In this document: positions 3,588 to 57,794 of the stretch, in pieces
Position numbering within the stretch: position 1 is the first letter of the stretch
Layout: every line of letters starts with the position of its first letter
Origin: Minisyncoccota bacterium
GTDB taxonomy: Bacteria > Patescibacteriota > Minisyncoccia > Minisyncoccales > RBG-13-42-11
Length of the DNA: 64,000 bases
Direction: 5' to 3'
Assembly (NCBI GenBank): GCA_016782605.1
Contig: JADHYE010000001.1
Coordinates: 11,128-75,127, forward strand
The notes under the pieces: generated by a model
What the model was told of the DNA's origin: nothing
Databases searched by the model: none
Seen by the model: the letters and a program-made list of their open reading frames with translations, nothing else
Position numbers and translations under genes: made by a program

Positions 3588-3850
3588 AGTGGTAATACTT
3601 AATTAATCGCGGCACGCGTCGCTTACGCTCCGCTAACACCGCTCTTTAGAAGACGAACGCAGTGAGGCGGGAAAAGAGATTTATCTCTTTGACCACTCTC
3701 GGTGCTCAATGAAGCTAAAGCTTCATTCCCCTTTCCGACATGGAATGGTTCTACTGAAACAAAAATGTCTGCTTTCCGCAGACAAAAATCAAGAAAAACT
3801 TAAAACTTTTCCTCGGCGGGTCTTATGGACGCCCACTGTCTGCGGATAAT
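3588..3850 (-). repeat. composite structured leader repeat F1, directly upstream of the rplJ ATG
   Basis: Shares the start-proximal block GCCGCGAyyTAATTArGTATTACCAyTATG and ..AAAGAGCGG.. with 33576-33870 and 57643-57794. Shares an 89-nt block (3639-3727) with 33651-33739. Confidence 0.6.
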
Positions 3851-3934
3851 ACTAATTTATTATATATCCAGAATCTTGTCAAGTGTTTCAAAAAGAGTAA
3901 GGGATCCGGTATTAAGGGCTCCCTTATGATAAAC

Positions 3935-3943
3935 ATTATACCA
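3935..3943 (-). promoter_or_regulatory. extended -10 promoter element (TGGTATAAT), candidate rplJ-rplL promoter
   Basis: Minus strand reads CCTGGTATAATG. The -35 is weak. It would give a leader of about 340 nt. Confidence 0.35.
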
Positions 3944-3992
3944 GGCATCTTTTAGTGACCTAATAATACGTATTTTAGAATTTTTGTCAAGG

Positions 3993-5021
3993 TTATTTGA
4001 AATACTTTACCTTAGCCGTATTGTGTTCGTCCAAGGTTTTGCTAAAAATAGTTTCTCCTTCCCTGGTGGAAAGATAATACCAGTAATCGCTATCTTGAAG
4101 ATAAACAGCAGCGATAATGCTTTCAAGTCCAGGATTACAAATCGGACCCAAGGGAAGCCCTTTGTATTTGTAAGTATTGTAGGGAGAATCAATTTCTGTA
4201 CCAGAAGCGATCTCTGATCTCATTTCGTCAAACGTCCAGTTTTCTTTTCCTAAGATATAAGCAATGGTGGCGCAGCTGCGCAAGGGTTCGCTATTCTCAA
4301 TCTTTCCCCAGAAAATGCCAGAAACTATTTTTTTGTCCTCCAAAGTTATTACTTCCTTCTCAAGAATACTAGCCATGGTCACTATTTCAAAAATAGTTTT
4401 GCCTTGTTTCTTAATTTCCTCTCTTAATTCAGAATTCAATTTCTTATCGAAATTAATAAGCATTTTTTCAACAACGCTTTCCATGCTTTCTTTGCTGGTT
4501 TTCTCGTAAGTATCGGGAAAAAGATATCCTTCCAGACTTAAATTCTCAGGCTTATCTCTAAGAAAAGCAAAATCAGCAGAAAAATCTTTTGAAGAAGAAC
4601 CGGTTATCGGAGAACCGACCAATCCAAAAAAATCATCAGCCCCAAATAAACCTTTGCTTTCAAAATAAGAAGCGATATCCCTTAAACTCCATCCTTCAAT
4701 AATAGTGATCTTTTCCTTTATGACATTGCCGGAAAAAAGCTTGTCAGCAATCTGAGGCATATTCATTGAAGGAGACAAAATATATTCTCCTGCTTTTAAA
4801 TAAGAAGCCATTCCCACAGTCAAAACATAAACCCGGAAAACAGGAGACCACCTTATCAATCCCTGATTTTCCAAATTCAAGCCGATGTCCCTTGAACCCT
4901 GACCCTTTTCCACGCTGAAAATAACTTCTTTTTCAGAATTCTGTTCTACGGGCAAAATAACCAGCCAGGAAGCAATCAGAACAATAATAACGACAATAAT
5001 TAAAATTAAAGATTTTTTCAC
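3993..5021 (-). CDS. mltG: endolytic murein transglycosylase, YceG/MltG family
   Basis: N-terminal TM helix followed by a YceG-like domain. The ORF-track start (5033, TTG) lies inside repeat A1. GTG at 5021-5019 gives MKKSLILII.... Confidence 0.8.
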   Translation of the reverse strand: MKKSLILIIVVIIVLIASWLVILPVEQNSEKEVIFSVEKGQGSRDIGLNLENQGLIRWSPVFRVYVLTVGMASYLKAGEYILSPSMNMPQIADKLFSGNVIKEKITIIEGWSLRDIASYFESKGLFGADDFFGLVGSPITGSSSKDFSADFAFLRDKPENLSLEGYLFPDTYEKTSKESMESVVEKMLINFDKKLNSELREEIKKQGKTIFEIVTMASILEKEVITLEDKKIVSGIFWGKIENSEPLRSCATIAYILGKENWTFDEMRSEIASGTEIDSPYNTYKYKGLPLGPICNPGLESIIAAVYLQDSDYWYYLSTREGETIFSKTLDEHNTAKVKYFK

Positions 5022-5152
5022 CCCGTATATCAACCTCCAAGCATTTTCAATGCGAAAATATCCTGAAGGCTGTCTTTATTTAATAATATATTCAACATAA
5101 TAACTTTGTTTGAGATTTTAATACGAAGTATTCTGGAAGTTGTATTACGGGG
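5021..5152 (-). mobile_element. family A hairpin (MITE-like) element, copy A1
   Basis: 132 bp. Arms are ccccgtatatcaacctccaag / ctggaagttgtattacgggg. Flanking direct repeat ttca at 5017-5020 and 5153-5156 (TGAA in gene sense). Lies between the pcm stop and the mltG start. Confidence 0.7.
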
Positions 5153-5153
5153 T

Positions 5154-5789
5154 TCATTTTTTCAATAAAGGAACGAAAATAAACCCTGGATGTTCTTTTT
5201 CTTCAAAATCAGTTTCGTTCTTTTTAATTAAAAGCCAGATTGAAGAATCAACCGGAGCAACAATCCTGCCTCCGATTTTCAGCTGCTTTTTCCAAGAATC
5301 GGGAATATTAACAGCACTAGCAGATGCTAAAATCTTGTCAAACCCTTCGACAAACTCAGGGTGAGAGGAGATATTGGGATAACCGTTGTTTCCGTCAAGA
5401 CAGAAAAACTGAACAATCCCCTTTTTAACGAAATTATATTTTGAAACGTTTTTCTCGCCAAAGTCCTTCAATTCCTGGATTATATCAAGGGAAATAACCT
5501 TTCCTTTTTTACCGACAATTTCAGCTAACAAAGCGCTGGTCCAGCCAGAGCCTGAACCAACATCCAAAACCTTATCCCCTTCATGCAAATCCAGCAATTC
5601 CATCATAAAAGCAACAACCAAAGGCTGAGAAATGGTCTGGCCGAATCCTATAGGCAAAGCCTCGTTGATCTCTGCTAAATTCTTTGAGTCTTCCGGCAAA
5701 AAATCGCTTCTCTTTATTTTTTTAAAAGCTTCTATCACTTTCGGCGTTTTCAGCCAGTTATCTTTAATTAGCTCTTCAATAAGCGGCAT
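5154..5789 (-). CDS. pcm: protein-L-isoaspartate O-methyltransferase
   Basis: 211 aa with a SAM-binding motif (VLDVGSGSGW) and a GQTISQP motif typical of Pcm. Confidence 0.85.
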   Translation of the reverse strand: MPLIEELIKDNWLKTPKVIEAFKKIKRSDFLPEDSKNLAEINEALPIGFGQTISQPLVVAFMMELLDLHEGDKVLDVGSGSGWTSALLAEIVGKKGKVISLDIIQELKDFGEKNVSKYNFVKKGIVQFFCLDGNNGYPNISSHPEFVEGFDKILASASAVNIPDSWKKQLKIGGRIVAPVDSSIWLLIKKNETDFEEKEHPGFIFVPLLKK

Positions 5790-5790
5790 A

Positions 5791-5860
5791 CTAGGTAGTA
5801 GAAATTCGACAAATTTATTTTTCTTTGCTGCCAGGCAGCAGTCGAATTTTCACTACCTGG
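5791..5860 (-). mobile_element. family B hairpin (MITE-like) element, copy B1
   Basis: 70 bp. Arms are ctaggtagtagaaattcgac / gtcgaattttcactacctgg. Flanked by cata at 5787-5790 and 5861-5864 (TATG in gene sense). 5789-5787 is the pcm ATG. Confidence 0.7.
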
Positions 5861-6312
5861 CATAGTTTTTGTGGTAAACTCATTTTATCAATAAATAGTA
5901 TTCCGTCCAAGTGGTCAATCTCGTGCTGGAAAACCCTGGCTGACAATCCATCAACTTTCATTTTGATTTTTTCCCCCTGCAGATTAAGAAACTCCAGTTC
6001 CACTTCCTTAGCTCTTTTAATCTTTAAAAACAAACCAGGAAAACTCAAGCATCCCTCTTCCATGACTTCTGTCTTTCTGCTTTTCCGCACGATCTTTGGA
6101 TTTATGAAAACTTGCGACTTTCCTTCAAAAAAAGCAGCGATTATGCTTTTTGATTCGCCGATCTGAGAAGCAGCCAATCCAATGCCGTCTTTTTCCATCA
6201 TTATCTTTTTCATTTCTTCGGCCAATATCTTCACCTCCTCGGTTATCTCCTTGATCGCAGAAGATTTCTTTCTCAGTATTGGATTTGGATATTCTAATAT
6301 TTGCTTACTCAT
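5815..6312 (-). CDS. def: peptide deformylase
   Basis: EGCLSFPG and QHEIDHLDG metal-site motifs. The last ~15 codons (CQVVKIRLLPGSKEK*) and the stop codon are encoded by element B1. Confidence 0.9.
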   Translation of the reverse strand: MSKQILEYPNPILRKKSSAIKEITEEVKILAEEMKKIMMEKDGIGLAASQIGESKSIIAAFFEGKSQVFINPKIVRKSRKTEVMEEGCLSFPGLFLKIKRAKEVELEFLNLQGEKIKMKVDGLSARVFQHEIDHLDGILFIDKMSLPQKLCQVVKIRLLPGSKEK

Positions 6313-10084: not shown

Positions 10085-10091
10085 ATTTTTG

Positions 10092-10847: not shown

Positions 10848-10942
10848 ATTGCTTATTTGCTTGCCGAGCTGCAGCAAGATAGAAGAAGAGATTTATCTCT
10901 TCGCTTCTTTGTGAAAACTAACTAAAAAGCACTTATATGAAT

Positions 10943-12690: not shown

Positions 12691-13347
12691 TTATAATTTT
12701 CCAATTGATTTGCCGTATTTTCTCCTCCAGGCTTCTATCATTTTGTGATTACCCGAAACCAAAACTTTAGGTACCCGCCATTTCTGGAAAACTTCAGGCC
12801 TGGTGTATTGCGGATATTCCATAAATCCCTTTTCCTTAGTTATCCTTTCTTTCAATAAAGCAGGTTTGCCCAAAACTCCAGGTATTAACCTTGTTATGGT
12901 TTCCATAACTATCATTCCAGGCAACTCCCCTCCCATCAAGTCGTAGTCGCCAACTGACAACTCCATATCAGCAATGTGTTTGGCTACTCTTTCATCAACC
13001 CCTTCATACCGGCCGCAAATCATAATTATCTGGTTTAATTTTGACAACTGATAAGCTGTTTTCTGATTGAATTTCTTTCCCCGGGGAGTAAATAATATGA
13101 CTTTTGTTTTGCCTTTGCCTTTTATCTTTCTAACAGCTTTATATATGGACTCTACCTTCAAAACCATACCCAGCCCTCCGCCAAAAGGCCTATCATCAAC
13201 TGTTTTGCGCTGATCTTTGGCCCAGTCCCTCAAATTATGGACATTTATCTTAATCAATTTCTTTTCCCTGGCTTTCTTAATAAAAGACTCCTTCAGATAA
13301 GAATCGAATATTTGGGGAAAGATTGTAATAATATCAAATTTAAGCAT
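12691..13347 (-). CDS. trmD: tRNA (guanine37-N1)-methyltransferase
   Basis: 218 aa, TrmD-like throughout (MLKFDIITIFPQIF..., GGELPGM). Confidence 0.9.
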   Translation of the reverse strand: MLKFDIITIFPQIFDSYLKESFIKKAREKKLIKINVHNLRDWAKDQRKTVDDRPFGGGLGMVLKVESIYKAVRKIKGKGKTKVILFTPRGKKFNQKTAYQLSKLNQIIMICGRYEGVDERVAKHIADMELSVGDYDLMGGELPGMIVMETITRLIPGVLGKPALLKERITKEKGFMEYPQYTRPEVFQKWRVPKVLVSGNHKMIEAWRRKYGKSIGKL

Positions 13348-13348
13348 A

Positions 13349-13480
13349 CCCTGTATATCAACATCCAGGCATTTTCAATGCGAAAACACCCTGAAGATTG
13401 TCTTTATTTAATAATATATTTAACATAATAACTTTGTTTGAGATTTTAATACGAAGTATTCTGGATGTTGTATTACGGGG
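13349..13480 (-). mobile_element. family A element, copy A2
   Basis: 132 bp, flanked by cata at 13345-13348 and 13481-13484. 13347-13345 is the trmD ATG. Confidence 0.7.
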
Positions 13481-13544
13481 CATAAAAACAAAAACGGCCT
13501 ATTTTGAACAATAGCACCGTTTTTGCACTCTGTAAACTTAGAGT

Positions 13545-14447: not shown

Positions 14448-15137
14448 TTACCAATGTTTGACTGCTAAAGCGTTTTTCGCTGCCTCAACTTCTGCTTCTT
14501 GTTTTGAAGATCCTTTGCCTTCGGCCACTAAATCCTTATCAAGGAAAACGCCGATAACGAAATTCTTTGCGTGATCCGGCCCGTGTTCTTTCAAAACTTT
14601 ATAGGTCGGAGTAATGCCCACTCTTTCTTGGGCTGCTTCCTGGAAAGTGGATTTAGCATCCCTGAAAAGACCTTTCTCAATGATTTCCGGCAATTTAACG
14701 ATTAAATTCTTTTTAATGAATTTTTCGCATGCTTTATAGCCTGAATCAAGGTAAGCTGAACCGATAAACGCTTCAAAAGTGTTGGCCAGGATATAATCCC
14801 TTGATTTGCCTGTTTCTTTCATTTCTCCTTTTGAAAGAAGCAAAAAATCATTAAAGCCCAATTCCTTAGCAACCTCAGCAAGCATTTTAGCATTAACCAG
14901 AGAAGCGCGCCAGTTGGTCAATTCGCCTTCCGGCTTTTTGGGATATTTGACAAAAAGGTGTTCGGTAATAATAAGTTCCAAAACCGCATCTCCCAAAAAT
15001 TCCAGTCTTTCATTGTTATCCAGATTGGCTTTCGGATTCTCGTTCAGATAGGAGCGATGGCAAAAAGCCTGAATCAATAAATCCTTGTTTTTGAATTTAA
15101 AATTTAATTGCTTTTCCAATATTGAAAAATCATTCAT
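14448..15137 (-). CDS. rnc: ribonuclease III
   Basis: Signature NERLEFLGDAVLE and a C-terminal dsRBD (..GSSKQEAEVEAAKNAL). Confidence 0.9.
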   Translation of the reverse strand: MNDFSILEKQLNFKFKNKDLLIQAFCHRSYLNENPKANLDNNERLEFLGDAVLELIITEHLFVKYPKKPEGELTNWRASLVNAKMLAEVAKELGFNDFLLLSKGEMKETGKSRDYILANTFEAFIGSAYLDSGYKACEKFIKKNLIVKLPEIIEKGLFRDAKSTFQEAAQERVGITPTYKVLKEHGPDHAKNFVIGVFLDKDLVAEGKGSSKQEAEVEAAKNALAVKHW

Positions 15138-15267
15138 ATACCGAGTCCGCCCAAGGCGGGCGAAGGTGAAGAAGAGGTTTACCTCTTCGACTTACTTTTC
15201 TAATACCGAGTCCGCCCAAGGCGGGCGAAGGTGAAGAAGAGGTTTACCTCTTCGACTTACTTTTCTA
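15138..15267 (-). repeat. perfect 65-bp tandem duplication (2 units) of a two-hairpin intergenic module that includes the nusB stop codon
   Basis: 15138-15202 and 15203-15267 are identical by eye. Each unit contains GTCCGCC-caa-GGCGGGC and GAAGAGG-ttta-CCTCTTC hairpins plus ..cttacttttcta (the last nusB codons). Confidence 0.8.
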
Positions 15268-15676
15268 ATTCTTTATAAACGGTCCCCAAAACGCCATTGA
15301 TAAACCTGCCAGAACTCTCTCCGCCAAAAGATTTAGCCAGCTCAATGGCTTCGTTAATAGCCACTTTTGGAGGAACCTCTTCTTTATTAGAATACAGTAA
15401 TTCAAAAAGTCCCATCCTCAGAATATTCCTGTCAACAACCGTTATCTGGCTTATCGGCCATTCAGGGGCTGCCTGTTCAATAATCTTATCCAGCTTTGAA
15501 AGGTGCTTAACTACTCCGGTAATTATCTGCCAGACCAGGCTTAAGTCCTCCAAACCAGGACCGAACTCTTTGATGTTCTTTTCAACTATCTTTTCCAAAT
15601 CATTTTTCCTGCCGCTAAAATCCCACTCGTAAAGAGACTGCATAGCAATACTTCTTGATAAATGACGACTAGCCAT
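15257..15676 (-). CDS. nusB: transcription antitermination factor NusB
   Basis: 139 aa, NusB-like ([14 protein letters not shown]..., [13 protein letters not shown]). Confidence 0.85.
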
Positions 15677-32297: not shown

Positions 32298-33149
32298 TTA
32301 TTGTAAAAGATTTTGAGGAATATGTATAATTTCGACCCCAGCTGCCTCTAAGGTTTTTCTCCCATCAAGATTTGAAGCTCCTTCAGAAAAATAGACTTCC
32401 TTAATCCCAGCCCAAGCAATAAGTTTTGCACACAATGAACAGGGAAAATGAGTAAGATAAAGAAATAAACCCTCTAATTTAATTCCGTTTTTAGCGGATT
32501 CGGAAATAAGTTTTTGCTCGGCATGAATAGTTGGAGAAAAATCTTGTTTCTCCCCGGCTTGAAAAAAATCTCTTACTGAGCCAACCTGATAAGGAGTACT
32601 ATCGTTTGGTACCCCTTGGTTATAAGAACGAGCTATTATTTTTTTATTCTTTAGCAAGACCGCTCCAATTTGACGCCACCAATCACTACTTTTTTGAGCT
32701 TCTTTATAAGCTTCTTTCATTATTTCTATGTCAAAATTATCCGTCGAAACCTTAATATCGTCTATCGGTAAATCGGCCACAACTTTTTCCTTATCCCATC
32801 GAAGAAAAACTGATTCCCATTCTATGTTTTCTCCTTTTAAATATTTTTCTTCCAAATTTCGGGAAATTTCGTCTTGGATAAGAATGATTTCTTTGCCCTT
32901 CAGCTCTCCAATGCTGTTTTTGGAAAGAATTGAAACATTTTTAAAATCGAATTTTTCTAATAAATCCTTCACTGTATTTACATCTAAAGAAGCAATATCC
33001 TGTTTAATATCAGAAAGTTCTTTTTGAAAAGTTTCATCAATGATATATATATTAGAAATTCTATCTAATTTTTTTTTAAAAAAATCTAAATAACCCTTAT
33101 GGATTACAGGAATATGAATAATGAGATTTTTATTTCTCATAAAATACAA
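32298..33149 (-). CDS. dCMP deaminase domain fused to an N-terminal domain of unknown function
   Basis: The C-terminal half has zinc motifs HAE...PCSLC. The first ~140 aa are unassigned. Confidence 0.7.
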   Translation of the reverse strand: MYFMRNKNLIIHIPVIHKGYLDFFKKKLDRISNIYIIDETFQKELSDIKQDIASLDVNTVKDLLEKFDFKNVSILSKNSIGELKGKEIILIQDEISRNLEEKYLKGENIEWESVFLRWDKEKVVADLPIDDIKVSTDNFDIEIMKEAYKEAQKSSDWWRQIGAVLLKNKKIIARSYNQGVPNDSTPYQVGSVRDFFQAGEKQDFSPTIHAEQKLISESAKNGIKLEGLFLYLTHFPCSLCAKLIAWAGIKEVYFSEGASNLDGRKTLEAAGVEIIHIPQNLLQ

Positions 33150-33152: not shown

Positions 33153-33575
33153 TCACTCAATGGTAATGCCCATGTTCTTAGCCGTACCCTCAATTATTTT
33201 CATTGCCTGTTCGATGTCATCTGCGTTCAAATCAGGCATCTTTTTCAAAGCTATTTCTTTCAATTGTGCCCTTGAAATCTTGGCCACTTTAGTTTTATTG
33301 GGAGTGCCAGAGCCCTTTTCAATGCCAGCTGCTTTTTTCAATAATTCGGAAGCTGGCGGCTGCTTCAAGATAAAAGTATAGGTTCTGTCCTCAAAAACCG
33401 TGATTTCAACCGGAATAACGAAACCCTGGTTGTTTTTGGTCGCATCGTTGAACCTCTGGCAGAACTCGGATATGTTCACTCCGTATTGAGCCAAAACAGG
33501 ACCGACCGGAGGAGCCGGAGTCGCCAGAGCTGCTTTAATTTGAAGTTTTACGATTGCTTTTACTTTTTTTGCCAT
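33153..33575 (-). CDS. rplK: 50S ribosomal protein L11
   Basis: 140 aa. [26 protein letters not shown].. is canonical L11. Confidence 0.95.
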
Positions 33576-33870
33576 AGTGGTAATACCTAATTAAGTCGCG
33601 GCTCGCGCATATTATATATTAATATATTGCCTTCGGCGAATGTGCTACTGCCGCTCTTTAGAAGACGAACGCAGTGAGGCGGGAAAAAAGATTTATCTCT
33701 TTGACCACTCTCGGTGCTCAATGAAGCTAAAGCTTCATTTCGGTCTGCGCTTCCGTGAACGGAAGCTTGCCTTCTAACGTTTTCCACCTCATCGGCGGAA
33801 ATCCTGTTTTCCTATACGGAAGAACCTGATGGTTCTTCCGACCCATCTCCGATATGGGATACTATTACGT
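33576..33870 (-). repeat. composite structured leader repeat F2, directly upstream of the rplK ATG
   Basis: Shares the start-proximal block with F1 and F3, block 33651-33739 with F1, and block 33807-33868 with F3 (57726-57787). Confidence 0.6.
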
Positions 33871-34031
33871 TAATTATTAATTGTTCAAGCGAGGCAACAA
33901 GTTTTAAAGTAGCTCTCGGAAGCCTATTTGCATGGTTCGCCGGAAGCGAAAATAGGCTGAGAGCGCAACTCCCAAAATCTCGCAGGGATTTTGAGAAGCG
34001 GTACTTTCAAAACTTAGTTGCCGAGCACCCC

Positions 34032-34939: not shown

Positions 34940-36871
34940 CTAAATGTCTAAATTCTTAACGCCTTTGGCATGCGTCTGGATGAATTTCTTTCGGGGCAGC
35001 ACTTCATCTCCCATCAAGATATCGAAAATTCTGTCAGCTTCCTTGACATCTTCAATATCTACCCTTAATAAAGTCCTTTTTTCAGGATTCATGGTGGTTT
35101 CCCAAAGCTGATCCGGATTCATTTCTCCCAAACCCTTGTATCTTTGTATCGAAACATTCAAGATTTTCTCTTTCTTCAATTTCATTAAAACCTTGTCTTT
35201 TTCCTCTTCGGTATATGCATATTCTATCTTTTTGCCTGACTGTAAACGGTAAAGAGGAGGCTGAGCAATATATATGAAGCCTTTTTCAATCAGCAGCTTG
35301 AAATAGCGGTAAAAAAGAGTTAAAAGAAGAGTTCTTATATGGGAACCGTCAACATCAGCATCAGTCATTATAATAATGCGGTGGTATCTGGCCTTTTCAA
35401 TTTTAAAATCATCAGCCACTGCCGTACCCAAAGCAATGATCAATGATTTTATCTCTTTGGAAGAAAGCATCTTGTCCAGACGGGCGCGCTCAACATTCAA
35501 TATCTTTCCCCTTAAAGGCAGAATAGCCTGGAATCTTCTGTCCCTAGCCTGGCGAGAACTGCCGCCAGCTGACTCACCCTCAACTATGTAAAGTTCTGAG
35601 TCTTCGGGATTTCGAGAACTGCAGTCAGCCAATTTGCCCGGCAAAGCCAATCCCTCTAATGCTCCCTTGCGCAAAACAGTCTCACGCGCCACCCTAGCTG
35701 CTTTCCTGGCTTTTGAAGAAAGAATACATTTTTCAATAATCGCCCGGGCATCCTGCGGATTCCTTTCCAAAAAATCAGTCAGGGTTTCCGAAACAACTGC
35801 TTCCACTGCTGTTTTGGCCTCAGGATTACCTAACTTTGCTTTGGTCTGTCCTTCAAATTGCGGCTCTTTGATTTTTACGGAAACCACGCCGGTAAATCCC
35901 TCTCTGACGTCTTCACCCGACAAATTCTCATCGCTTTCTTTAAGAATGCCGTTCTTTTTGGCGTAATCGTTAAAAGTCCTGGTTAAAGCGGTTCTAAAGC
36001 CGGTCAAGTGATTTCCCCCCTCTCCGGTAAAAATGTTATTGGCAAAACTTTCTTCAAAACATTCATATTCTTCAGTATATTGGAAAGCTGCCTCAACCAG
36101 AATTCCTTCTTTTTCCCCGATACCGTAATAGATATTGGGATGGCGCTTAACCACGTCTCTGGTCAGATATTTGACGTATGAAGACAGTCCGCCCTCAAAA
36201 TAAAAAGCGTAGAACTTTTCCGGTTTTTCCCTTTGGTCAATGGCAGTGATTCTTATCTTTTTTGTCAGGTAAGCCTGCTGCCTGAGATGTTTCAGAATCT
36301 TATTAAAATCGAATTTGATTTCGCTGAATATCTCAGGATCCGGTTCAAAGTAAACCGTGGTGCCTGTCTGCCTGCATTTGCCGTCTTTTTTAACGGCTGT
36401 TTTAGGCTTTCCTTTGGCATATTCCTGGCAATACCTAATGTTATCTCGGCAGACTTCAACCCTCATCCATTTTGAAAGCGCGCAGACCACGGAAACTCCC
36501 ACGCCGTGCAAACCGCCAGCCACCTGGTAAGCTTTGCCTCCGAATTTAGCTCCGGCATGCAATGTTGTCATTACGGTTTCCAAAGCTGATTTTTTAGTTT
36601 GCCAGTGCCTTTCAACCGGAATTCCCCTGCCATCGTCAGTTGTCTTCACTTTGTTGCCTGGCGAAAGAATAACTTCAATGTTTTTTGCATGCCCGGCCAT
36701 TGCCTCATCCAAACTGTTATCAATGCATTCCCAAATCAAATGATGAAGTCCCTCTGGACCGGTTGAACCGATATACATGCCGGGCCTTTTCCTGACAGGA
36801 TCAAGGCCTTCCAAAACATAAATGTCTTTGGCAGTATAATCTTTTTCAGTTTTTTTAGGTTTTTGTAGCAT
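34940..36871 (-). CDS. gyrB: DNA gyrase subunit B
   Basis: GHKL ATPase and TOPRIM (EGESAGGS) domains. The ORF-track start (36898) runs into repeat A3. ATG at 36871 gives MLQKPKKTEKDYTAKDIYVLEGL.... Confidence 0.95.
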   Translation of the reverse strand: MLQKPKKTEKDYTAKDIYVLEGLDPVRKRPGMYIGSTGPEGLHHLIWECIDNSLDEAMAGHAKNIEVILSPGNKVKTTDDGRGIPVERHWQTKKSALETVMTTLHAGAKFGGKAYQVAGGLHGVGVSVVCALSKWMRVEVCRDNIRYCQEYAKGKPKTAVKKDGKCRQTGTTVYFEPDPEIFSEIKFDFNKILKHLRQQAYLTKKIRITAIDQREKPEKFYAFYFEGGLSSYVKYLTRDVVKRHPNIYYGIGEKEGILVEAAFQYTEEYECFEESFANNIFTGEGGNHLTGFRTALTRTFNDYAKKNGILKESDENLSGEDVREGFTGVVSVKIKEPQFEGQTKAKLGNPEAKTAVEAVVSETLTDFLERNPQDARAIIEKCILSSKARKAARVARETVLRKGALEGLALPGKLADCSSRNPEDSELYIVEGESAGGSSRQARDRRFQAILPLRGKILNVERARLDKMLSSKEIKSLIIALGTAVADDFKIEKARYHRIIIMTDADVDGSHIRTLLLTLFYRYFKLLIEKGFIYIAQPPLYRLQSGKKIEYAYTEEEKDKVLMKLKKEKILNVSIQRYKGLGEMNPDQLWETTMNPEKRTLLRVDIEDVKEADRIFDILMGDEVLPRKKFIQTHAKGVKNLDI

Positions 36872-36872
36872 A

Positions 36873-46035: not shown

Positions 46036-47112
46036 TTAAAATAATCTGGCAACGTCTTTTATCGTCACCAAAACCATTAATAAAAGTAATAAACTGAAAA
46101 ATACAGCTGTTATGTTCTGCTCCACTTTTTCGCTAATCGGCCTTCTCCTGATAGCTTCAATCCCCAGAAATAATATCTTGCCTCCGTCAACTGCTGGAAT
46201 GGGCAGAATATTGAAAATAGCGATATAAATGGCCACTATGCCGACAAATTGCAGAAAATAATTCGTTCCCATCTGGCTAGCCTGAGTAAAAAGATGAACG
46301 ACCCCTACCGGACCCATCAGTTCAACTCCCGAAGACTGGCCTTGAACAATATTGCTTATCACTTGGCCGTAACCTTTAATTATTGCTCCTGTCATATTAA
46401 CCGTTGCCACCAATCCCTGCCAAGGAGCCTGGTACCAGGAAAAAGACTGCATTGCTGTTCTGACTAAAGCTACGCCCAAAGGACCTTCTCCTGCTGGCGG
46501 CGAAACTCGAGGTACGACTTTGACGTCAAAAACTTCATTCCCCCTTTCAACCGTCAAAACAATCTCTTCTCCTAAATGAGTATTACTGAACTCCTGCACT
46601 TCCCGTATTTTACCAACAGCCAATTGCTCCTCGCTAATTGCCATTCCTTTTATCGTATCCCCAGGTTGTAAGCCAGCAAGTTTTGCCGGAGAGCCAGCAG
46701 AAATGCTAGCAATCTGCACTCTTGGATTAACTAAACCAGAAGCTTCATCGTCTACAGCCACTGCTGTTCCTAAATTGAAAACAATAGCAAATAGAATTGC
46801 TGCCACTATCCAAAAAGAAAGCACTCCGGCAAAAGCAATTAAAGCCCTTTTCCAGACAGCCTGACCTGAAAAACTGCGAGGGTCATTTACCTGACCTATT
46901 TCGCCCGGCATTTTTACGAAAGCACCTAGGGGCAGAAGATTTAAAGAATAAATAGTATCGCCAATTTTTTTTCCGAATATCCTGGGAGGGAAACCTATGC
47001 CAAATTCTTCAACTTTTACTCCGAATTTCTTTGCTACGATAAAATGGCCGAATTCGTGAAGAGTTACTAGCCCTATTAAGCTTAAAGAAGCGATAAGAAT
47101 TGTTAAAAACAT
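46036..47112 (-). CDS. rseP: site-2 (RseP-type, M50) zinc metalloprotease
   Basis: HEFGHF motif, PDZ-like segment, several TM helices. Confidence 0.85.
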   Translation of the reverse strand: MFLTILIASLSLIGLVTLHEFGHFIVAKKFGVKVEEFGIGFPPRIFGKKIGDTIYSLNLLPLGAFVKMPGEIGQVNDPRSFSGQAVWKRALIAFAGVLSFWIVAAILFAIVFNLGTAVAVDDEASGLVNPRVQIASISAGSPAKLAGLQPGDTIKGMAISEEQLAVGKIREVQEFSNTHLGEEIVLTVERGNEVFDVKVVPRVSPPAGEGPLGVALVRTAMQSFSWYQAPWQGLVATVNMTGAIIKGYGQVISNIVQGQSSGVELMGPVGVVHLFTQASQMGTNYFLQFVGIVAIYIAIFNILPIPAVDGGKILFLGIEAIRRRPISEKVEQNITAVFFSLLLLLMVLVTIKDVARLF

Positions 47113-47113
47113 A

Positions 47114-47245
47114 CCCTGTATATCAACATCCAGGCATTTTCAATGCGAAAACACCCTGAAGATTGTCTTTATTTAATAATATATTTAACATAATAACTTT
47201 GTTTGAGATTTTAATACGAAGTATTCTGGATGTTGTATCACGGGG
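47114..47245 (-). mobile_element. family A element, copy A5
   Basis: 132 bp, flanked by cata at 47110-47113 and 47246-47249. 47112-47110 is the rseP ATG. Confidence 0.7.
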
Positions 47246-47249
47246 CATA

Positions 47250-47810
47250 TTATTCTGATATTTCTTTTTTCTTATTCTCTCCCATTTCTTCTATCTTTTT
47301 ATTGTAATCGTCAACCAACTCCTGAAGCTCGTCTTTAGCCCGGAACTTGTCATCCTCCCTGATTTCTCCCTGTTTTGTTTTATCCTGGATTTCACTCCAA
47401 ACCTCTTCCCTCCACTTTCTAATAGTCCTTCTTGACTGTTCTTCTTTTTCCGCAATGGTCCTGGTTAAATTCTTCCTGTATTCTTCGTTCAAAGGCGGCA
47501 AATTAATCCTGACTGCATCCTTGTCAACAATTGGATTAGCGCCGATTCCCGTCTTTTCCAAAGCTGAAACAATGCCTTCGATATAAGACTTATCCCAAGG
47601 CTGAATTAAAATCTGCTTTGCCTCAGGTGTAGAAATGGCAGCCAATTGTTTTAAAGGAAACTTCTGGCCGAAACAGTCAACAACAACATCCTCCACCAAA
47701 GAAGGCGTTGCCCTGCTGGTACGAATCTTATTCATTTCCTTTTCTAAAAAGCCGATTACCTTGTCTAATTCCGGTTTAATATTTTGAATGATTGTTTTGT
47801 AGCTATCCAT
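47250..47810 (-). CDS. frr: ribosome recycling factor
   Basis: 186 aa, Frr-like throughout (..IRTSRATPSLVE..). Confidence 0.95.
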   Translation of the reverse strand: MDSYKTIIQNIKPELDKVIGFLEKEMNKIRTSRATPSLVEDVVVDCFGQKFPLKQLAAISTPEAKQILIQPWDKSYIEGIVSALEKTGIGANPIVDKDAVRINLPPLNEEYRKNLTRTIAEKEEQSRRTIRKWREEVWSEIQDKTKQGEIREDDKFRAKDELQELVDDYNKKIEEMGENKKKEISE

Positions 47811-47811
47811 A

Positions 47812-47943
47812 CCCTGTGTATCAACATCCAGGCATTTTCAATGCGAAAACATCCTGAAGATTGTTTTTATTTAATAATATATTTAACATAATAACTTTGT
47901 TTGAGATTTTAATACGAAGTATTCTGGATGTTGTATTACGGGG
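47812..47943 (-). mobile_element. family A element, copy A6
   Basis: 132 bp, flanked by cata at 47808-47811 and 47944-47947. 47810-47808 is the frr ATG. Confidence 0.7.
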
Positions 47944-47951
47944 CATAAAAA

Positions 47952-51893: not shown

Positions 51894-52066
51894 CTCGGCA
51901 CCTCCTTTCTTTATTTCTTATCTTTCGTTAATATATTAATCAAATCCTTACCTTGCAGGATATAATATGAATTCAACCTCCATCTCTCTTCTCTGCTCCT
52001 CACCATATATATCAACCCATATTGGACATAAAATGAACCACCGCTCCCCTCCTTCTACAATCACAT

Positions 52067-52095
52067 ATATTACCACGCTCTTTCCAAAATGTCAA
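52067..52095 (-). promoter_or_regulatory. consensus sigma70 promoter TTGACA-N17-TAATAT
   Basis: -35 at 52095-52090 and -10 at 52072-52067 on the minus strand. Would give a leader of about 170 nt to the 51893 ATG. TTGA of the -35 is also the flanking repeat of element C2. Confidence 0.6.
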
Positions 52096-52165
52096 CCCCA
52101 TTAGAAGTCCGCCTTGCCGGAGGCATGGCGACAGCCACCAAGGGGGCAGCTTACTTCTAACGGAG
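52096..52165. mobile_element. family C hairpin element, copy C2
   Basis: 70 bp. Arms are ccccattagaagt / acttctaacggag with a GC-rich interior. Flanked by tcaa at 52092-52095 and 52166-52169. Confidence 0.6.
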
Positions 52166-52177
52166 TCAAGATTGAGG

Positions 52178-52183
52178 TATAAT
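52178..52183 (+). promoter_or_regulatory. -10 hexamer TATAAT placing a predicted TSS on the A of the upstream duplicated ATG (52190)
   Basis: TATAAT-AATCAT-ATG. The -35 is weak. Confidence 0.35.
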
Positions 52184-52192
52184 AATCATATG

Positions 52193-52264
52193 CCAGGTAG
52201 TGAAAATTCAACCACTGCCGCGGCAGTGAAAAAAATAATAATTTGTCGAATTTCTACTACCTAG
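52193..52264 (+). mobile_element. family B element, copy B3 (inverted relative to B1 and B2, matching its plus-strand gene)
   Basis: 72 bp, flanked by tatg at 52189-52192 and 52265-52268. 52266-52268 is the ATG of the 52266-53570 gene. Confidence 0.7.
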
Positions 52265-52265
52265 T

Positions 52266-53570
52266 ATGACCAAAAAGACAAAAACAATACTGTTTTTAGC
52301 CTGCTTACTTGCATTCATCCTGTTAGCTCCCTCAATAGTCCTGTACTCCCAAGGATACAGAATTGATTTTAATCCTCCAGAAGGCGGAAAAATGATTACC
52401 CAAACCGGAGGCCTTTTTTTGAAAGTCACGCCCAAACAAACAGATATTTATATTGACGGCAAACCTAAAAAAAGAACTGATTTTCTATTCGGTTCTGTTT
52501 TAATTGAAAACCTCATTCCTGGAAAGTACAAAGTAGAAATCAAAAAATTAACCAGCCAGGAAGAATACTATCCCTGGGAGAAAAACCTGGAAATACGGGA
52601 AAAACAGGTAACTGAAGCCAAGAACGTTGTCCTTTTCCCGAAAAACGTTAATTTCAACGTCTTATCAACCAACGTAGAACAGCTTTGGCTTTCTCTGGAC
52701 CAAAAGAAACTAATCTTAAAGGAAAATGAAAAAGCCAGCTGGTCCTTAAAGCTTTACGACCCGGAAAAGAATATAAAAAGCTATTTAATAAGCGACGAGG
52801 ATTTCTTCACGAAAGAACCCCAATTAATCAATCTGAAATTCTCGGGAGACTCAAGAAGTATTAATCTGGAAGTCAGCATAAAAGAAGCAATACAATCTTT
52901 TTCTCTGCAACTTGACCAAGCAAAACCAACTTTAAATAAAAAAACAGCAGCCACAACGACAACTGGAAACGCTGCTATCTCGCAACAAGCAGGCAATGAT
53001 ATATATTATCTGGACAGTTTCGGCTATCTTTTCAGGAATAAAGAAAAGCTGGCAGAAACTCCCTTTCAAACAAAACAAGAAACAGAATATGCTTTAGATA
53101 TTTTCAACGGCAACATATTCTTAAAAGAAAACGACAAACTGTACAAATTCAATTACAATCTGAAAACATTTGAACATTTCTTTGACGGAATCAATATCTT
53201 AAAGCTTTCTCCGGACAATAAAAAACTGCTTTACGCTTCAAACAATGAAATGTGGATTCTTTTCCTGGAAGACAAAATCGACCAGCCGCAGAAAAAATCA
53301 GGAGAGAAAATCTTTTTAATCCGCTTATCAGACCAAATCACAAGCATCTCCTGGATAAACGACAATTACCTGGCTTTTCTTGCCGGCAATACCGTTAAAA
53401 TCATTGAAATAGACGACAGGGACAGAATAAACGTTATAGACATCTTTGAAACAAAAAACCTCCCTCAAGAAGGAAGCATTAATGAAATGTCCTGGAACAG
53501 GTTTGACAATAAAATCTATCTCTTGGACGAAAACGGCTATTTATATAGCTCTAACGTCCTGCTCCCGTAA
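52266..53570 (+). CDS. hypothetical membrane-anchored protein with a PEGA-like domain and a C-terminal propeller-like region
   Basis: 434 aa. N-terminal TM helix, and TDIYIDGKPKKRT...PGKYKVEIKK resembling PEGA. Confidence 0.5.
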   Translation: MTKKTKTILFLACLLAFILLAPSIVLYSQGYRIDFNPPEGGKMITQTGGLFLKVTPKQTDIYIDGKPKKRTDFLFGSVLIENLIPGKYKVEIKKLTSQEEYYPWEKNLEIREKQVTEAKNVVLFPKNVNFNVLSTNVEQLWLSLDQKKLILKENEKASWSLKLYDPEKNIKSYLISDEDFFTKEPQLINLKFSGDSRSINLEVSIKEAIQSFSLQLDQAKPTLNKKTAATTTTGNAAISQQAGNDIYYLDSFGYLFRNKEKLAETPFQTKQETEYALDIFNGNIFLKENDKLYKFNYNLKTFEHFFDGINILKLSPDNKKLLYASNNEMWILFLEDKIDQPQKKSGEKIFLIRLSDQITSISWINDNYLAFLAGNTVKIIEIDDRDRINVIDIFETKNLPQEGSINEMSWNRFDNKIYLLDENGYLYSSNVLLP

Positions 53571-54269: not shown

Positions 54270-54739
54270 TGAGGAGCACGACGAGCGCGCTTCAATCCGA
54301 ACTTCTTTCTTTCCCTCATCCTCGGGTCTCTTTTCAAAAAACCAGCTTTTTTCAACTGTTTCCTCAATTCTGGATCGAATAAAACTAAAGCGCGAGTTAA
54401 ACCGTGCCTGACAGCTTCAGCCTGGGAAGTCGTCCCTCCCCCTTTAACTTTTACTGAAACCTGAAATTTGTCAGAATAATCAGTCAAAATCAAAGGAGAA
54501 AAAATAATACGCTGAAGGTATTTTGTCGGAAAATAATTTTCAAAAGTCCTTGTATTTATTAAAAAGGTCTTTTCTTTTTGAACAGAAATTCTCACCCTGG
54601 CTACAGCTGTCTTTCTCCTGCCTATGCCCTCAAAATACCTGGCTACTTTAGGTTTAACTGTTACTTTGGCAGTTTTTTTAGCTGGAGCTTTTTTGACTTT
54701 CTTTACTGTTTCTTTTTTTGTTTTTTTAGCCTTTGGCAT
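54254..54739 (-). CDS. rpsI: 30S ribosomal protein S9 with a Lys-rich N-terminal extension
   Basis: C-terminus ..RERKKFGLKRARRAPQWQKR is canonical S9. The ORF-track start (54760) runs into repeat A7. ATG at 54739 gives MPKAKKTKK... Confidence 0.9.
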   Translation of the reverse strand: MPKAKKTKKETVKKVKKAPAKKTAKVTVKPKVARYFEGIGRRKTAVARVRISVQKEKTFLINTRTFENYFPTKYLQRIIFSPLILTDYSDKFQVSVKVKGGGTTSQAEAVRHGLTRALVLFDPELRKQLKKAGFLKRDPRMRERKKFGLKRARRAPQWQKR

Positions 54740-54740
54740 A

Positions 54741-54872
54741 CCCCGTATATCAACATCCAAGCATTTTCAATGCGAAAACACTCTGAAGGCTGTTTTTATT
54801 TAATAATATATTCAACATAATAACTTTGTTTGATATTTTAATACGAAGTATTCTGGATGTTGTATTACAGGG
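54741..54872 (-). mobile_element. family A element, copy A7
   Basis: 132 bp, flanked by cata at 54737-54740 and 54873-54876. The rplM stop codon (54867-54865) lies inside the element. Confidence 0.7.
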
Positions 54873-55215
54873 CATATTTTAATCTTTTAATCATTTTTGC
54901 TCTTAATTTATTCTTGGGCAGCATGCCAAAAACCGCTTTCCTCAAAACTTCTTCCGGATTCTTCTCAAATAACTTCTCCAAAGTTATCTCCTTCAAGCTT
55001 CCCAGATATCCAGAATGACGGTAGTATTTCTTCTGTTTGGCTTTTTTGCCGGTGAATTTCAACTTATCAACGTTTTGGACAATAACAACATCGCCGATAT
55101 CTTTGTACGGCGCAAAGTCTGCTTTCTGTTTCCCCCTCAAAAGCAAAGCTATTTCAACAGCCAGTCTGCCTAAAACCTTATCAGTAGCGTCTATTTTGTG
55201 GGTTTTGCGTTCCAT
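54865..55215 (-). CDS. rplM: 50S ribosomal protein L13
   Basis: 116 aa, L13-like (..VLGRLAVEIALLLRGK..). The last residues (..YAL*) are encoded by TATG plus element A7. Confidence 0.9.
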   Translation of the reverse strand: MERKTHKIDATDKVLGRLAVEIALLLRGKQKADFAPYKDIGDVVIVQNVDKLKFTGKKAKQKKYYRHSGYLGSLKEITLEKLFEKNPEEVLRKAVFGMLPKNKLRAKMIKRLKYAL

Positions 55216-55217
55216 AG

Positions 55218-55568
55218 TTATTTAACCAATTCTATTATGGCTATTTTGGCAGCATCTACTTTTCTTTGGCCAAGCTTAATAATCCTGGTATATCCTCCTT
55301 TTCTTTCTTTGAATCTCGGGGCGATCTCATCAACCAATTTCTTAACCACTTTTCCAGTAAAAAACTTTGCCAATAATCTGCGCGAAGCCAAAGTGCCGAC
55401 TTTCGCTTTGGTAATCTTTTTTTCAACGAAAGAGGAAACCTCTTTTGCCTTAGCTTCTGTTGTTTTAACTTTTTCTTTCAATATCAAAGCAGCAGCTAAA
55501 GATCTTAAAAGAGCGTTTCTTTGGTCTTTTTCCCTATTTAGTTTTTTCCCTTTTTTTCTTTTTCTCAT
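55218..55568 (-). CDS. rplQ: 50S ribosomal protein L17
   Basis: 116 aa with ..GYTRIIKLG.R..D.A..A.IEL typical of L17. Confidence 0.9.
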   Translation of the reverse strand: MRKRKKGKKLNREKDQRNALLRSLAAALILKEKVKTTEAKAKEVSSFVEKKITKAKVGTLASRRLLAKFFTGKVVKKLVDEIAPRFKERKGGYTRIIKLGQRKVDAAKIAIIELVK

Positions 55569-56364
55569 TTTTTACTTTTTTGCTTACTGCTTTCTTTTCT
55601 TTTTTCGGCTTCTTGGCCGCTTTTTTCTTTTCTTTGTCTTCCGGTTCTACAGATGCAGCTTTCGGCTGGAAAGCTGTAGCCAGCAACGAAAAGTGGCTAA
55701 TCAAAATTTCCGAAGCCTGATAAAATGCCTGTTCCGGATCGATAATGCCGTCTGTTTCAATTTCCAGAAACAATCTGTCAAAGTCAGTTCTTTCTCCGAC
55801 ACGCATATTCTCAACCCTGGAACTTACCCTTTTTACAGGAGTAAAGCTGGCATCCAGCAGAATAGCTCCTATCTCTAATTTTTCAGGCATGGAGCCTGCT
55901 GTTTTTTTCCTTGTTTCGCGGCTGGAATAGCCAATTCCCTTTTCAATCTGGATTTCCATTTCCAGTTCAGCGGATTTTGAATTCAAAGTGGCAATATGGC
56001 AGTTTTTATTTACCAATTCCACTTGGCTGGGCAGCTTGAAATCAAAGCCCTTCACTGCTTTTTCTCCCTTAACTTTCAGGGTCGCTTTCTGTGGCTCGTC
56101 GCTAAAAAGCTTAAATCTCAATTGCTTCAAATTAAGCATTATAGTGATAACGTCTTCTAAAACTCCTGAAATCGTTGAGAACTCATGGGAAACTCCCTTG
56201 ATTTTGACTTGGGTAATAGCAGCTCCTTCAAGCGAAGAAAGCAAAACCCTTCTCAAAGAATTGCCGACGGTTACTCCGTAGCCAGGACGCAAAGCTTCTA
56301 TTTCAAAAACAGCTTTGTTCCCTTCTTTTTTAACTATTTTGGGAGCGTGAGGTAAATTAATCAT
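55534..56364 (-). CDS. rpoA: DNA-directed RNA polymerase alpha subunit, N-terminal domain only, plus a Lys-rich tail
   Basis: About 235-aa alpha-NTD (..GNSLRRVLLSSL..) followed by a ~40-aa KKEK-rich tail. No alpha-CTD-like sequence. Confidence 0.9.
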   Translation of the reverse strand: MINLPHAPKIVKKEGNKAVFEIEALRPGYGVTVGNSLRRVLLSSLEGAAITQVKIKGVSHEFSTISGVLEDVITIMLNLKQLRFKLFSDEPQKATLKVKGEKAVKGFDFKLPSQVELVNKNCHIATLNSKSAELEMEIQIEKGIGYSSRETRKKTAGSMPEKLEIGAILLDASFTPVKRVSSRVENMRVGERTDFDRLFLEIETDGIIDPEQAFYQASEILISHFSLLATAFQPKAASVEPEDKEKKKAAKKPKKEKKAVSKKVKNEKKKKREKTK

Positions 56365-56422
56365 ATAGCGAGTCCCGCAACAACGGGACGAAGGTTAAGA
56401 AGAGGATGAATTCCTCTTCGAT
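56365..56422 (-). repeat. two-hairpin intergenic module related to the nusB-rnc unit
   Basis: atagcgaGTCCCGcaacaaCGGGACgaaggttaaGAAGAGGatgaattCCTCTTCgattta fills the whole rpsD-rpoA spacer. Same architecture as 15138-15202 with different stem sequences. Confidence 0.6.
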
Positions 56423-57052
56423 TTATTTTGAGTAAAACTCGAAAATTGCGGAGAGTTCTGCCGGTGGGACAGCCTCTTCTAAATTTGGTGAATCGATGAC
56501 CTTTGCCTCCAGCTTCTCAGCGTCTAATTTGAGCCAAGACGGAGGATTATATTTTTTTAAAGTAGATGATAATTTCTGGAAAATTGTTTTTTTTAAAGAA
56601 TTGGGGTTAACGCTTATTTTGTCCCCTTTCTTAACCAGATAGCTGGAAATATTAATCGGCCTGTCGTTAACCATAAGATGGCTGTGGGAAACCATTTGTC
56701 TGGCAGCAAATTTGGAAGGAGCGAAACCTAATCTGAAAACTACATTGTCCAAGCGGCTCTCCAAAGTTTTAATTAAAGCAGCGCCGGCATCCGTCACCTT
56801 TCCCCTGGCCTTTAAAATATCTTTGACGTAGTTCCTGAATTGCTTCTCTTCCAAATTATACCAGTTCTTTAATTTTTGTTTTTCCCTTAATTCTTTACCG
56901 TATTCAGAAAGCGATTTCACTCTTTTTTTAGCTTTTGGCCCTGGCGGATAAGGTTTTTTGATCATTGGGCATTTCTGCGATGAGCACCTTTCGCCTCTCA
57001 AAAAAAGCTTAATTCCTGCACGACGGCAAATTTTGCATTTAGAAACATTCAT
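56423..57052 (-). CDS. rpsD: 30S ribosomal protein S4
   Basis: 209 aa with an N-terminal zinc-ribbon-like CKICRR..C segment and an S4 domain. Confidence 0.95.
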   Translation of the reverse strand: MNVSKCKICRRAGIKLFLRGERCSSQKCPMIKKPYPPGPKAKKRVKSLSEYGKELREKQKLKNWYNLEEKQFRNYVKDILKARGKVTDAGAALIKTLESRLDNVVFRLGFAPSKFAARQMVSHSHLMVNDRPINISSYLVKKGDKISVNPNSLKKTIFQKLSSTLKKYNPPSWLKLDAEKLEAKVIDSPNLEEAVPPAELSAIFEFYSK

Positions 57053-57053
57053 A

Positions 57054-57185
57054 CCCTGTATATCAACATCCAGGCATTTTCAATGCGAAAATATCCTGAA
57101 GGCTGTCTTTATTTAATAATATATTTAACATAATAACTTTGTTTGATATTTTAATACGAAGTATTCTGGATGTTGTATTACAAGG
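57054..57185 (-). mobile_element. family A element, copy A8
   Basis: 132 bp, flanked by cata at 57050-57053 and 57186-57189. 57052-57050 is the rpsD ATG. Confidence 0.7.
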
Positions 57186-57192
57186 CATAAGT

Positions 57193-57642
57193 TTATACCC
57201 TTCTTACTTTTGGCTTACGACAGCCGTTATGCGGAACTGGAGTCATATCCTTAATTGAAACTATTTCCAAACCCCTGGCAGCCAATGACCTAATAGCTGA
57301 ATCTCTGCCAGAACCTATCCCCTTTACGAAAATCTCTATCTTTTCAATCCCTATTTTCTCGGCAATCTGGACGATTGCTTCAGCTACCTTGGAAGCAGCA
57401 AAAGGCGTTGCTTTTTTTGCTCCTTTGAAACCGATATTGCCAGCGCTAGTCCAGCCCAAAACATTACCCTTTGGATCTGTCAAAGTAAGGATGGTGTTGT
57501 TATAAGAAGAAGCAATGTAAATTCTGCCCTCTTGTATCCTTTTAAGGGTTTCTTTGGCCTGCTCTTTCACTTTCGTTTCCATGGCTTCACCTTCTTTCAA
57601 AATCTCTTCTTCAGTTTGTCGTATAACACGTTTTTTACCCAT
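57193..57642 (-). CDS. rpsK: 30S ribosomal protein S11
   Basis: C-terminus ..DMTPVPHNGCRKPKVRRV is canonical S11. Confidence 0.95.
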   Translation of the reverse strand: MGKKRVIRQTEEEILKEGEAMETKVKEQAKETLKRIQEGRIYIASSYNNTILTLTDPKGNVLGWTSAGNIGFKGAKKATPFAASKVAEAIVQIAEKIGIEKIEIFVKGIGSGRDSAIRSLAARGLEIVSIKDMTPVPHNGCRKPKVRRV

Positions 57643-57794
57643 AATGGTAATACCTAATTAGGTCGCGGCACGTCCCACTTGCAGCGGGACTAACACCGCT
57701 CTTTAAAAACCCTCGGTTTTTAATATTTTCCTACACGGAAGAACCAAAGGGTTCTTCCGACCCATCTCCGATATGGGACGTTATTACTGAATTA
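57643..57794 (-). repeat. composite structured leader repeat F3, filling the rpsM-rpsK spacer
   Basis: 152 nt. Contains hairpins CCCAT..ATGGG, GGAAGAACC..GGTTCTTCC, AAAAACC..GGTTTTT and GTCCCGC..GTGGGAC, and ends ..GCCGCGACCTAATTAGGTATTACCATTATG. Confidence 0.6.

Follow-up and report, generated by a model that had tools for sequence, protein, structure and literature searches.

Why three unrelated ribosomal-protein genes should be preceded by the same sequence is the question raised by a 64,000-nt stretch of contig JADHYE010000001.1 from a Minisyncoccota bacterium (hereafter, the window). Genes assigned by Pfam to ribosomal proteins L10 (rplJ, 3075-3587), L11 (rplK, 33153-33575) and S11 (rpsK, 57193-57642), all on the minus strand, each follow a non-coding region, here termed F1, F2 and F3, respectively, and compared in gene sense. 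The first-pass annotation had described these regions as one modular, structured leader and had left two options, a mobile composite repeat or a common regulatory or processing RNA for ribosomal-protein genes. The analysis favors the former: F1, F2 and F3 are probably members of one family of modular, structured, non-autonomous interspersed repeats, which is lineage-specific and is not a common regulator of ribosomal-protein genes. The family has spread in an uncultivated lineage of the candidate phyla radiation (CPR) named 'Candidatus Pacebacteria' by NCBI, relatives of which are named Nealsonbacteria. Orthologous sites that are filled in one genome and empty in another, copies at non-orthologous, non-ribosomal and antisense positions, and modules swapped between copies together point to a mobile composite repeat.

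Shared modules upstream of rplJ, rplK and rpsK

MAFFT alignment and pattern searches bear out the annotated 3' module, a block of ~62 nt common to F1, F2 and F3 in which TAAAGAGCGG, a variable hairpin, GCCGCGA, TAATTARGTATTACCAYT and the ATG follow in the same order. The YRTTAG consensus initially given for this module does not extend to F2, which reads CAGTAG, but the module itself is present there. The sequence TAAAGAGCGGYRKTAG has three exact matches in the window, one in each of F1, F2 and F3 (0.21 expected by chance), and GCCGCGANNTAATTARGTATTACCAYTATG has two (0 expected), the F1 version carrying a 1-nt deletion. F1 and F2 also have in common a block of 96 nt with 96% identity (3632-3727 and 33644-33739), slightly longer than the 89-nt insert (3639-3727 and 33651-33739) annotated at first. 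F2 and F3 share, as had been noted, a 5' block holding two hairpins (62-73 nt, 87-89% identity; 33807-33879 and 57726-57797). BLAST E-values among the shared blocks range from 1e-8 to 1e-34. All three regions are indeed highly structured, with fold z-scores of -3.5 to -6.4 relative to shuffled sequence, and the 405-nt and 456-nt gaps that hold F1 and F2 are the two largest gaps free of open reading frames (ORFs) in the window.

The element is non-coding, hairpin-rich and modular, with a size of ~140-300 nt and the end sequences TTCAGTAATAAC...GGTATTACCAYT. From the 5' end, it consists of a 5' arm with a first hairpin (hp1), a second hairpin (hp2), the motif GTRTAGGAAAA, optional variable hairpins or a cassette termed module B, a third hairpin (hp3), module C and the tail TAATTARGTATTACCAYT; the 5' arm, hp1 and hp2 constitute module A. 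Module C is a stem with a variable tip, mostly a GNRA loop (GUAA, GCAA or GAGA). Five arrangements are seen when copies on other contigs, designated by L numbers, are included: A-linker-C (F3, L003, L004), A-extra hairpin-linker-C (L005, L007), hp1-B-C (F1), A-hairpins-B-C (F2) and a form with a variant 3' module (L016). Across the family, the 3' end is conserved and the 5' end is variable or truncated. The constituents of the window copies are as follows.

3588-3648, minus strand: F1 module C, in which a stem (GCGGU/GCCGC) carries a GUAA-tipped hairpin and is followed by an AU-rich tail (TTAATTAAGTATTACCACT) abutting the rplJ ATG (alignment; covariance-model match at 3585-3759, 98.6 bits)
3649-3727, minus strand: F1 module B, a two-hairpin cassette (GAAGCTTTAGCTTC, AAAGAGATAAATCTCTTT) (identity to F2; comparison with L007)
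3728-3760, minus strand: module A portion of F1, made up of the 5' arm (TTTCAGTAGAACC) and the first hairpin (TTCCATGTCGGAAAGGGGAA) (sequence match to L007 396-437 and to the F3 and F2 5' ends)
33576-33660, minus strand: F2 module C, whose tip hairpin is enlarged and whose tail abuts the rplK ATG (alignment, covariance model)
33661-33739, minus strand: F2 module B (alignment, BLAST)
33740-33806, minus strand: F2 linker with two further hairpins (fold; single copy by BLAST in all data fetched)
33807-33879, minus strand: F2 module A, comprising the 5' arm, hp1 (CCCAT..ATGGG) and hp2 (GGAAGAACC..GGTTCTTCC) (identity to F3)
33880-34031, minus strand: separate palindromic block of ~150 nt (GGCAACTAAGTTTTGAAAGTA...TACTTTAAAACTTGTTGCC), directly after the nusG stop codon (sequence, fold)
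57643-57705, minus strand: F3 module C, differing in its tip hairpin (GUCCCGCUGCAAGUGGGAC), with the tail abutting the rpsK ATG (alignment, fold)
57706-57735, minus strand: F3 linker, consisting of GTGTAGGAAAATA and hp3 (AAAAACC-GAG-GGTTTTT) (fold, alignment)
57736-57794, minus strand: F3 module A (5' arm, hp1, hp2), beginning at the rpsM stop codon (alignment)

The palindromic block at 33880-34031 has no second copy in the fetched data and is absent from relatives, in which only 4-7 nt are present at this site. At least two different insertions have therefore accumulated in the F2 gap.

An L10 leader separate from the repeat

F1 as first delimited (3588-3850) is a chimera, of which only ~3588-3760 belongs to the repeat. 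The remainder lies in a leader of the L10 type, preceded by a promoter-like site.

3751-3863, minus strand: ribosomal protein L10 leader (Rfam RF00557), outside the repeat (cmscan, 40.9 bits, E=1e-5)
3854-3882, minus strand: promoter-like site (TTGACA-17-TAAATT) ahead of the L10 leader (consensus scan)

The RF00557 match spans the full model (positions 1-138), at a score 3 bits under the gathering score of 44, and a terminator-like hairpin followed by a U-run (3766-3784; terminator scan) closes the leader. A leader of the same form (CCGCAGACAG...CCGAGG, hairpin and U-run) precedes rplJ in the relatives L006, L007, L008, L009 and L030, all of which have the TTGACA box in the same place. The repeat at rplJ sits downstream of this leader. 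Only the 5' part specific to F1 is matched by RF00557; modules B and C, which are shared, lie beyond the match and are missing in relatives. Comparison with L007 shows in addition that F1 keeps the 5' arm and first hairpin (3728-3760), and is not devoid of the 5' module as had been supposed.

At the gathering threshold, Rfam detects only tRNAs in the whole window. When hits up to E<=10 are considered for the three regions, the L10 leader is the only credible match, all others being far below their gathering scores (E>1), and nothing credible is found for F2 or F3. Assignment of each region to a distinct known leader, an outcome envisaged in the first-pass annotation, is thus seen only for the non-shared 5' part of F1. 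That rplJ retains its own leader upstream of the repeat argues against a shared regulator of ribosomal-protein genes. These results remove a false lead: no universal ribosomal-protein leader is present, and in this CPR lineage rplJ has an L10-type leader, as in other bacteria.

Filled and empty sites in relatives

Approximately 230 kb of related DNA, comprising no complete genome, was compared with the window. At rplK, the 456 nt of the window correspond to 4-7 nt between the nusG stop codon and the rplK ATG in nine relatives' contigs (L016-L021, L027-L029), the L11 proteins of which are 91-95% identical to that of the window. At rplJ, the window and L007 (L10 91% identical) both have the insert, and the site is empty in L008 and L009 (87%), L006 (86%) and L030 (85%), in which the ATG comes immediately after the L10 leader. 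At rpsK, the site is empty in L003, with only 4 nt between rpsM and rpsK (TAA-TATT-ATG; TAATATTATG). The element is thus missing at the same genes in relatives with ribosomal proteins 85-95% identical, which is a further point against a shared regulator. These empty sites are taken as uninserted; modules A, B and C are not kept at the orthologous operon as an autoregulatory leader would be.

The two filled rplJ sites differ internally. The insert is hp1-hp2-extra hairpin-hp3-C in L007 and hp1-B-C in the window, where module B stands in the place of hp2 and the linker. F1 and the L007 copy thus share a site but differ in the internal cassette, indicating module exchange.

Copies elsewhere

Genome and metagenome collections were scanned with a strict module C pattern requiring an exact match of 24-25 nt within the tail, by which divergent copies are under-sampled; three copies were found. 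The L003 copy precedes a gene for a 440-aa non-ribosomal membrane protein adjoining alaS. The L004 copy lies between rplE and rpsZ, a spacer that in the window's own genome holds instead an element resembling the D1 family described below. The L005 copy is antisense and fills the spacer from the dnaB stop codon to the recR start codon. A covariance model, a type of search proposed in the first-pass annotation, was built from five copies of the short form; it recovered every known copy and a divergent one in L016, which is antisense and located between a gene of unknown function and a radical-SAM gene; the corresponding window spacer is 15 nt. L003, L006 and L016 belong to the same metagenome-assembled genome (MAG) of a relative. 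An nhmmer profile search gave no additional copies, and two scans of viral contigs with module C motifs gave chance 16-mer matches or nothing.

Four of the seven independent sites are ribosomal-protein gene starts and three are not, two copies being antisense. The expectation that a plain repeat would be found mostly away from ribosomal-protein genes is therefore only half borne out. The operon specificity of an autoregulatory leader is nevertheless absent, given the copy before a non-ribosomal gene and the antisense copies at dnaB|recR and unknown gene|radical-SAM gene, and these same copies speak against a shared regulator. So do 15 genes of the S10/spc ribosomal-protein cluster, which are tightly packed in the 10 kb past the right end of the window in the same genome and have no copy. 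The apparent association with ribosomal-protein genes mostly reflects the position of the window and where insertions are tolerated.

Folding and expression signals

In a five-copy alignment, 99.4% of the pair cells are standard, compared with 43-50% when the partners are slid, and compensatory change is seen in seven pairs (in hp2, hp3 and the module C tip). G·U cells number 11 against one mismatch, showing that it is the gene-sense strand that folds, as RNA or single-stranded DNA.

Several functions that might be assigned to the sequence itself were considered and rejected. A coding explanation fails because the ORF at 33587-33787 is spurious and the sole ATG-initiated frame of F3 is absent from L004 and L007. 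Promoter delivery is ruled out as a consensus scan found no sense-strand sigma-70-like promoter inside the repeats. A Shine-Dalgarno role of the tail is ruled out since some copies have AGG and others AAG. Sites resembling terminators were confined to the hairpin of the L10 leader and to the unique palindromic block that lies upstream of F2.

Module C of all F copies (e.g., 57643-57672) contains GTGCCGCG, which may resemble a sense part of the universal 16S 515-536 region (GTGCCAGCAGCCGCGGTAATAC), and GGTATTACC, which may resemble an antisense part of it; CGTAATAC is found in the D1 inverted repeat as well. Such likeness could easily be due to chance.

Other repeat families in the window

At least three other repeat families (D1, G and E) are located at start codons of mixed genes in the window.

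5020-5152, 13345-13484, 41787-41927, 47110-47252, 47808-47947, 54737-54878 and 57050-57189: D1 copies
36869-37030: divergent D1 copy
L012 1-57 and 3652-3796: D1 before rpsS and rpsZ
5787-5864 (minus strand), 59903-59990 (minus strand) and 52182-52268 (plus strand): G copies
15133-15269 (two tandem units, before rnc) and 56361-56429 (before rpoA): small hairpin repeat CGAAGAGRTAAAYCTCTTC, in many cases with a second GC-rich hairpin behind it
10883-10928, 364-409 and 63935-63996: further copies of the CGAAGAGRTAAAYCTCTTC hairpin, which recurs in spacers

D1, with seven copies and a divergent one, is ~140 nt long and has 20-nt terminal inverted repeats and direct (T)ATG...TATG at its ends; its 3' ATG doubles as the initiation codon of the gene that follows (mltG, trmD, a hypothetical gene, rseP, frr, rpsI, rpsD and gyrB). 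In six of the seven copies, the 5' ATG opens a 41-codon upstream ORF (uORF) that spans the element, with the last base of its TGA positioned 10 nt before the real ATG; this geometry, seen in the sequence, hints at termination-reinitiation coupling. Upstream genes including gatA now have as their stop codon a TAA that belongs to the D1 inverted repeat (GTAATAC; 41915-41925 and similar D1 5' ends). In L016, a relative, the overlap of gatA with the following gene is 14 nt. The final few codons of upstream genes have thus been rewritten by D1 insertions.

G, with three copies of ~80 nt, has inverted repeats of ~20 nt (CCAGGTAGTG.../...CTACTACCTAG) and TATG on both sides. Its orientation tracks the downstream gene, including a plus-strand copy before a plus-strand gene. 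In the window, G fills the spacer between alaS and the membrane-protein gene, the very site at which the relative L003 has its F-type element.

E is a hairpin repeat family. One copy of the CGAAGAGRTAAAYCTCTTC hairpin falls within an ORF of 521 aa of unknown function. A piece resembling module B, in reverse orientation, is present at 63832-63901 (plus strand) and, equivalently, at L012 8277-8346; it belongs to a 280-nt spacer between adk and map with several hairpins. L010 and L011, which are short-read contigs, stop ~100 nt upstream of map, and the assemblies of L013 and L014 both end exactly at F3.

No D1, G, E or module B was found in 49 kb of a relative MAG. The packing of the families at start codons, their absence from the relative and the assembly breaks together look like a lineage-specific repeat burst. 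A streamlined CPR genome has thus been densely colonised by structured repeat families, which fill most window spacers longer than 100 nt and break metagenome assemblies.

Tolerance of the repeats at stop/start junctions

Copies of the F family lie in spacers of a few nucleotides, bounded upstream by a stop codon or the L10 attenuator and downstream by the next ATG. Located inside operon spacers, they are presumably co-transcribed as part of the operon mRNA. The element might persist because it is nearly neutral for expression, carrying neither promoter nor terminator. It would fold into self-contained local hairpins on the sense strand, and its unstructured AU-rich tail would leave the start codon about as accessible as at uninterrupted sites; the predicted unpaired fraction of positions -20..+13 is 0.50-0.68 at filled sites and 0.39-0.65 at empty sites, compared with 0.23-0.31 for D1 and G. 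At rplJ, the element lies after the terminator hairpin of the leader, so that attenuation control may be left untouched.

The abutment to the ATG is partly geometric, the permissive DNA between coupled genes being only 4-7 nt. The four exact abutments suggest in addition that sites immediately before (T)ATG are truly preferred, and the same preference is seen in D1 and G, as a TATG duplication. Repeats at stop/start junctions must interrupt translational coupling, which makes this lineage a natural test case for the tolerance of such interruption in compact genomes.

Points against the repeat and alternative explanations

Several observations weigh against reading the F family as a mobile repeat. 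Terminal inverted repeats are unconvincing: GTAATA at the 5' end and TATTAC at the 3' end extend over 6-7 nt and are degenerate in F1 and L003. Target-site duplications were not found, a duplication of 0-1 nt being possible from comparison of filled and empty rpsK, rplK and rplJ sites. No transposase domain was detected by Pfam in the 40 window ORFs scanned (74 called), and mobility is deduced only from the distribution of copies. The window also contains no Y1 transposase gene (RAYT/TnpA) of the kind associated with REP/BIME or IS200/IS605-derived PATE elements, and the 5' flanks, where such elements have a conserved target tetranucleotide, differ between sites. Four of seven independent sites are ribosomal-protein gene starts, and five of seven copies are in gene sense, four of them ending exactly at the ATG. 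Finally, module C is identical between the window and L007 (62/62), compared with 90% identity in the adjoining rplJ coding sequence. Identity above that of coding DNA implies that constraint or gene conversion has acted, neither of which would be required of mere junk.

These features leave some room for a mobile but functional 5' untranslated region (5'-UTR) cassette, which would spread like a transposon and be kept for a useful RNA providing 5'-end stability, an RNase processing site by which the gene is uncoupled from the cistron before it, or a ribosome landing pad where a Shine-Dalgarno sequence is lacking. This explanation is unlikely. The sense-strand-specific fold with its GNRA-type tips, the conservation above flanking coding sequence and the presence of an RNase III gene in the window are consistent with it, as is the tail, predicted to be unpaired, which abuts the ATG exactly in four of the five sense copies. 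Moreover, empty sites lack a Shine-Dalgarno sequence and have a stop-start spacing of 4-7 nt, so that insertion would break translational coupling and some replacement would be needed. However, the two antisense copies keep the same structure while serving no downstream gene, the tail has no conserved Shine-Dalgarno sequence, and recent spread or gene conversion may also account for high identity among the copies.

A broader proposal, which we regard as speculative and improbable, is that F, D1 and G are all start-codon-homing mobile 5'-UTR cassettes of CPR bacteria, inserting at stop/start junctions and keeping the downstream gene translated. F would do so by its unstructured landing tail and D1 by its uORF, and some copies, notably at ribosomal-protein genes, may have taken on a role in uncoupling or tuning translation.

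A shared cis-regulatory or processing RNA, through which one factor would coordinate synthesis of L10, L11 and S11, could draw on the position of the three window copies and the L004 copy before ribosomal-protein genes, on the covarying sense-strand structure and on the conservation of module C, but is very improbable given the empty sites, the 15 genes lacking the element, the non-ribosomal and antisense copies and the L10 leader, and a dedicated ribosomal-protein regulator is effectively excluded.

Comparison with known elements

Taken as an interspersed repeat, the F family has its nearest analogue in the pneumococcal BOX element, which has a modular boxA-boxB(n)-boxC organization, ranges from 67 to 637 bp, is tightly folded and is co-transcribed (Croucher et al., 2011; PMC3049150). 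Like BOX, F elements are small, non-coding, intergenic, structured, variable in length and lineage-restricted, with exchangeable modules and a variable interior between distinct conserved end modules; the likeness is one of analogy only. Upstream of trp, one BOX copy sits between two T-box riboswitches, neither of which it abolishes (PMC3049150), a situation paralleled by F1 between the L10 leader and rplJ. The F family differs from BOX in its phylum (CPR) and in abutting start codons, and the terminal inverted repeats and target-site duplications that are features of BOX were not found in it.

Repeats resembling MITEs (miniature inverted-repeat transposable elements), such as Correia and ERIC, can be processed or alter mRNA stability when located in transcribed spacers (PMC3049150). 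F elements resemble them in being short, structured, multi-copy (at least seven independent sites) and present or absent between relatives, but are without clear terminal inverted repeats or target-site duplications. This class fits D1 and G well (20-nt terminal inverted repeats, (T)ATG direct repeats).

A report on putative mobile promoters, or reused 5' regions, describes near-identical upstream sequences before non-homologous genes in one genome (Matus-Garcia et al., 2012; PMC3488235). To that extent the F family is similar; unlike mobile promoters, its elements have no sigma-70-like promoter, and F2 and F3 are inside operons rather than at their heads. A literature search of narrow scope found no paper linking CPR/Patescibacteria with such repeats, and the family is considered new only on the grounds that neither Rfam nor the literature gave a match.

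Neighboring genes

rplK is followed not by rplA but by genes for dCMP/dCTP deaminase and thymidylate synthesis (32298-33149; also L016, L018 and L020). None of the relatives examined has an L1 gene adjoining rplK; rplJ-rplL is located elsewhere, after mltG. Between mltG and the rplJ promoter, relatives have one or two small secreted-looking ORFs of 123-141 aa (L006 8808-9791), which are not present in the window at 3864-3992. The gyrB gene of L020 contains an intein.

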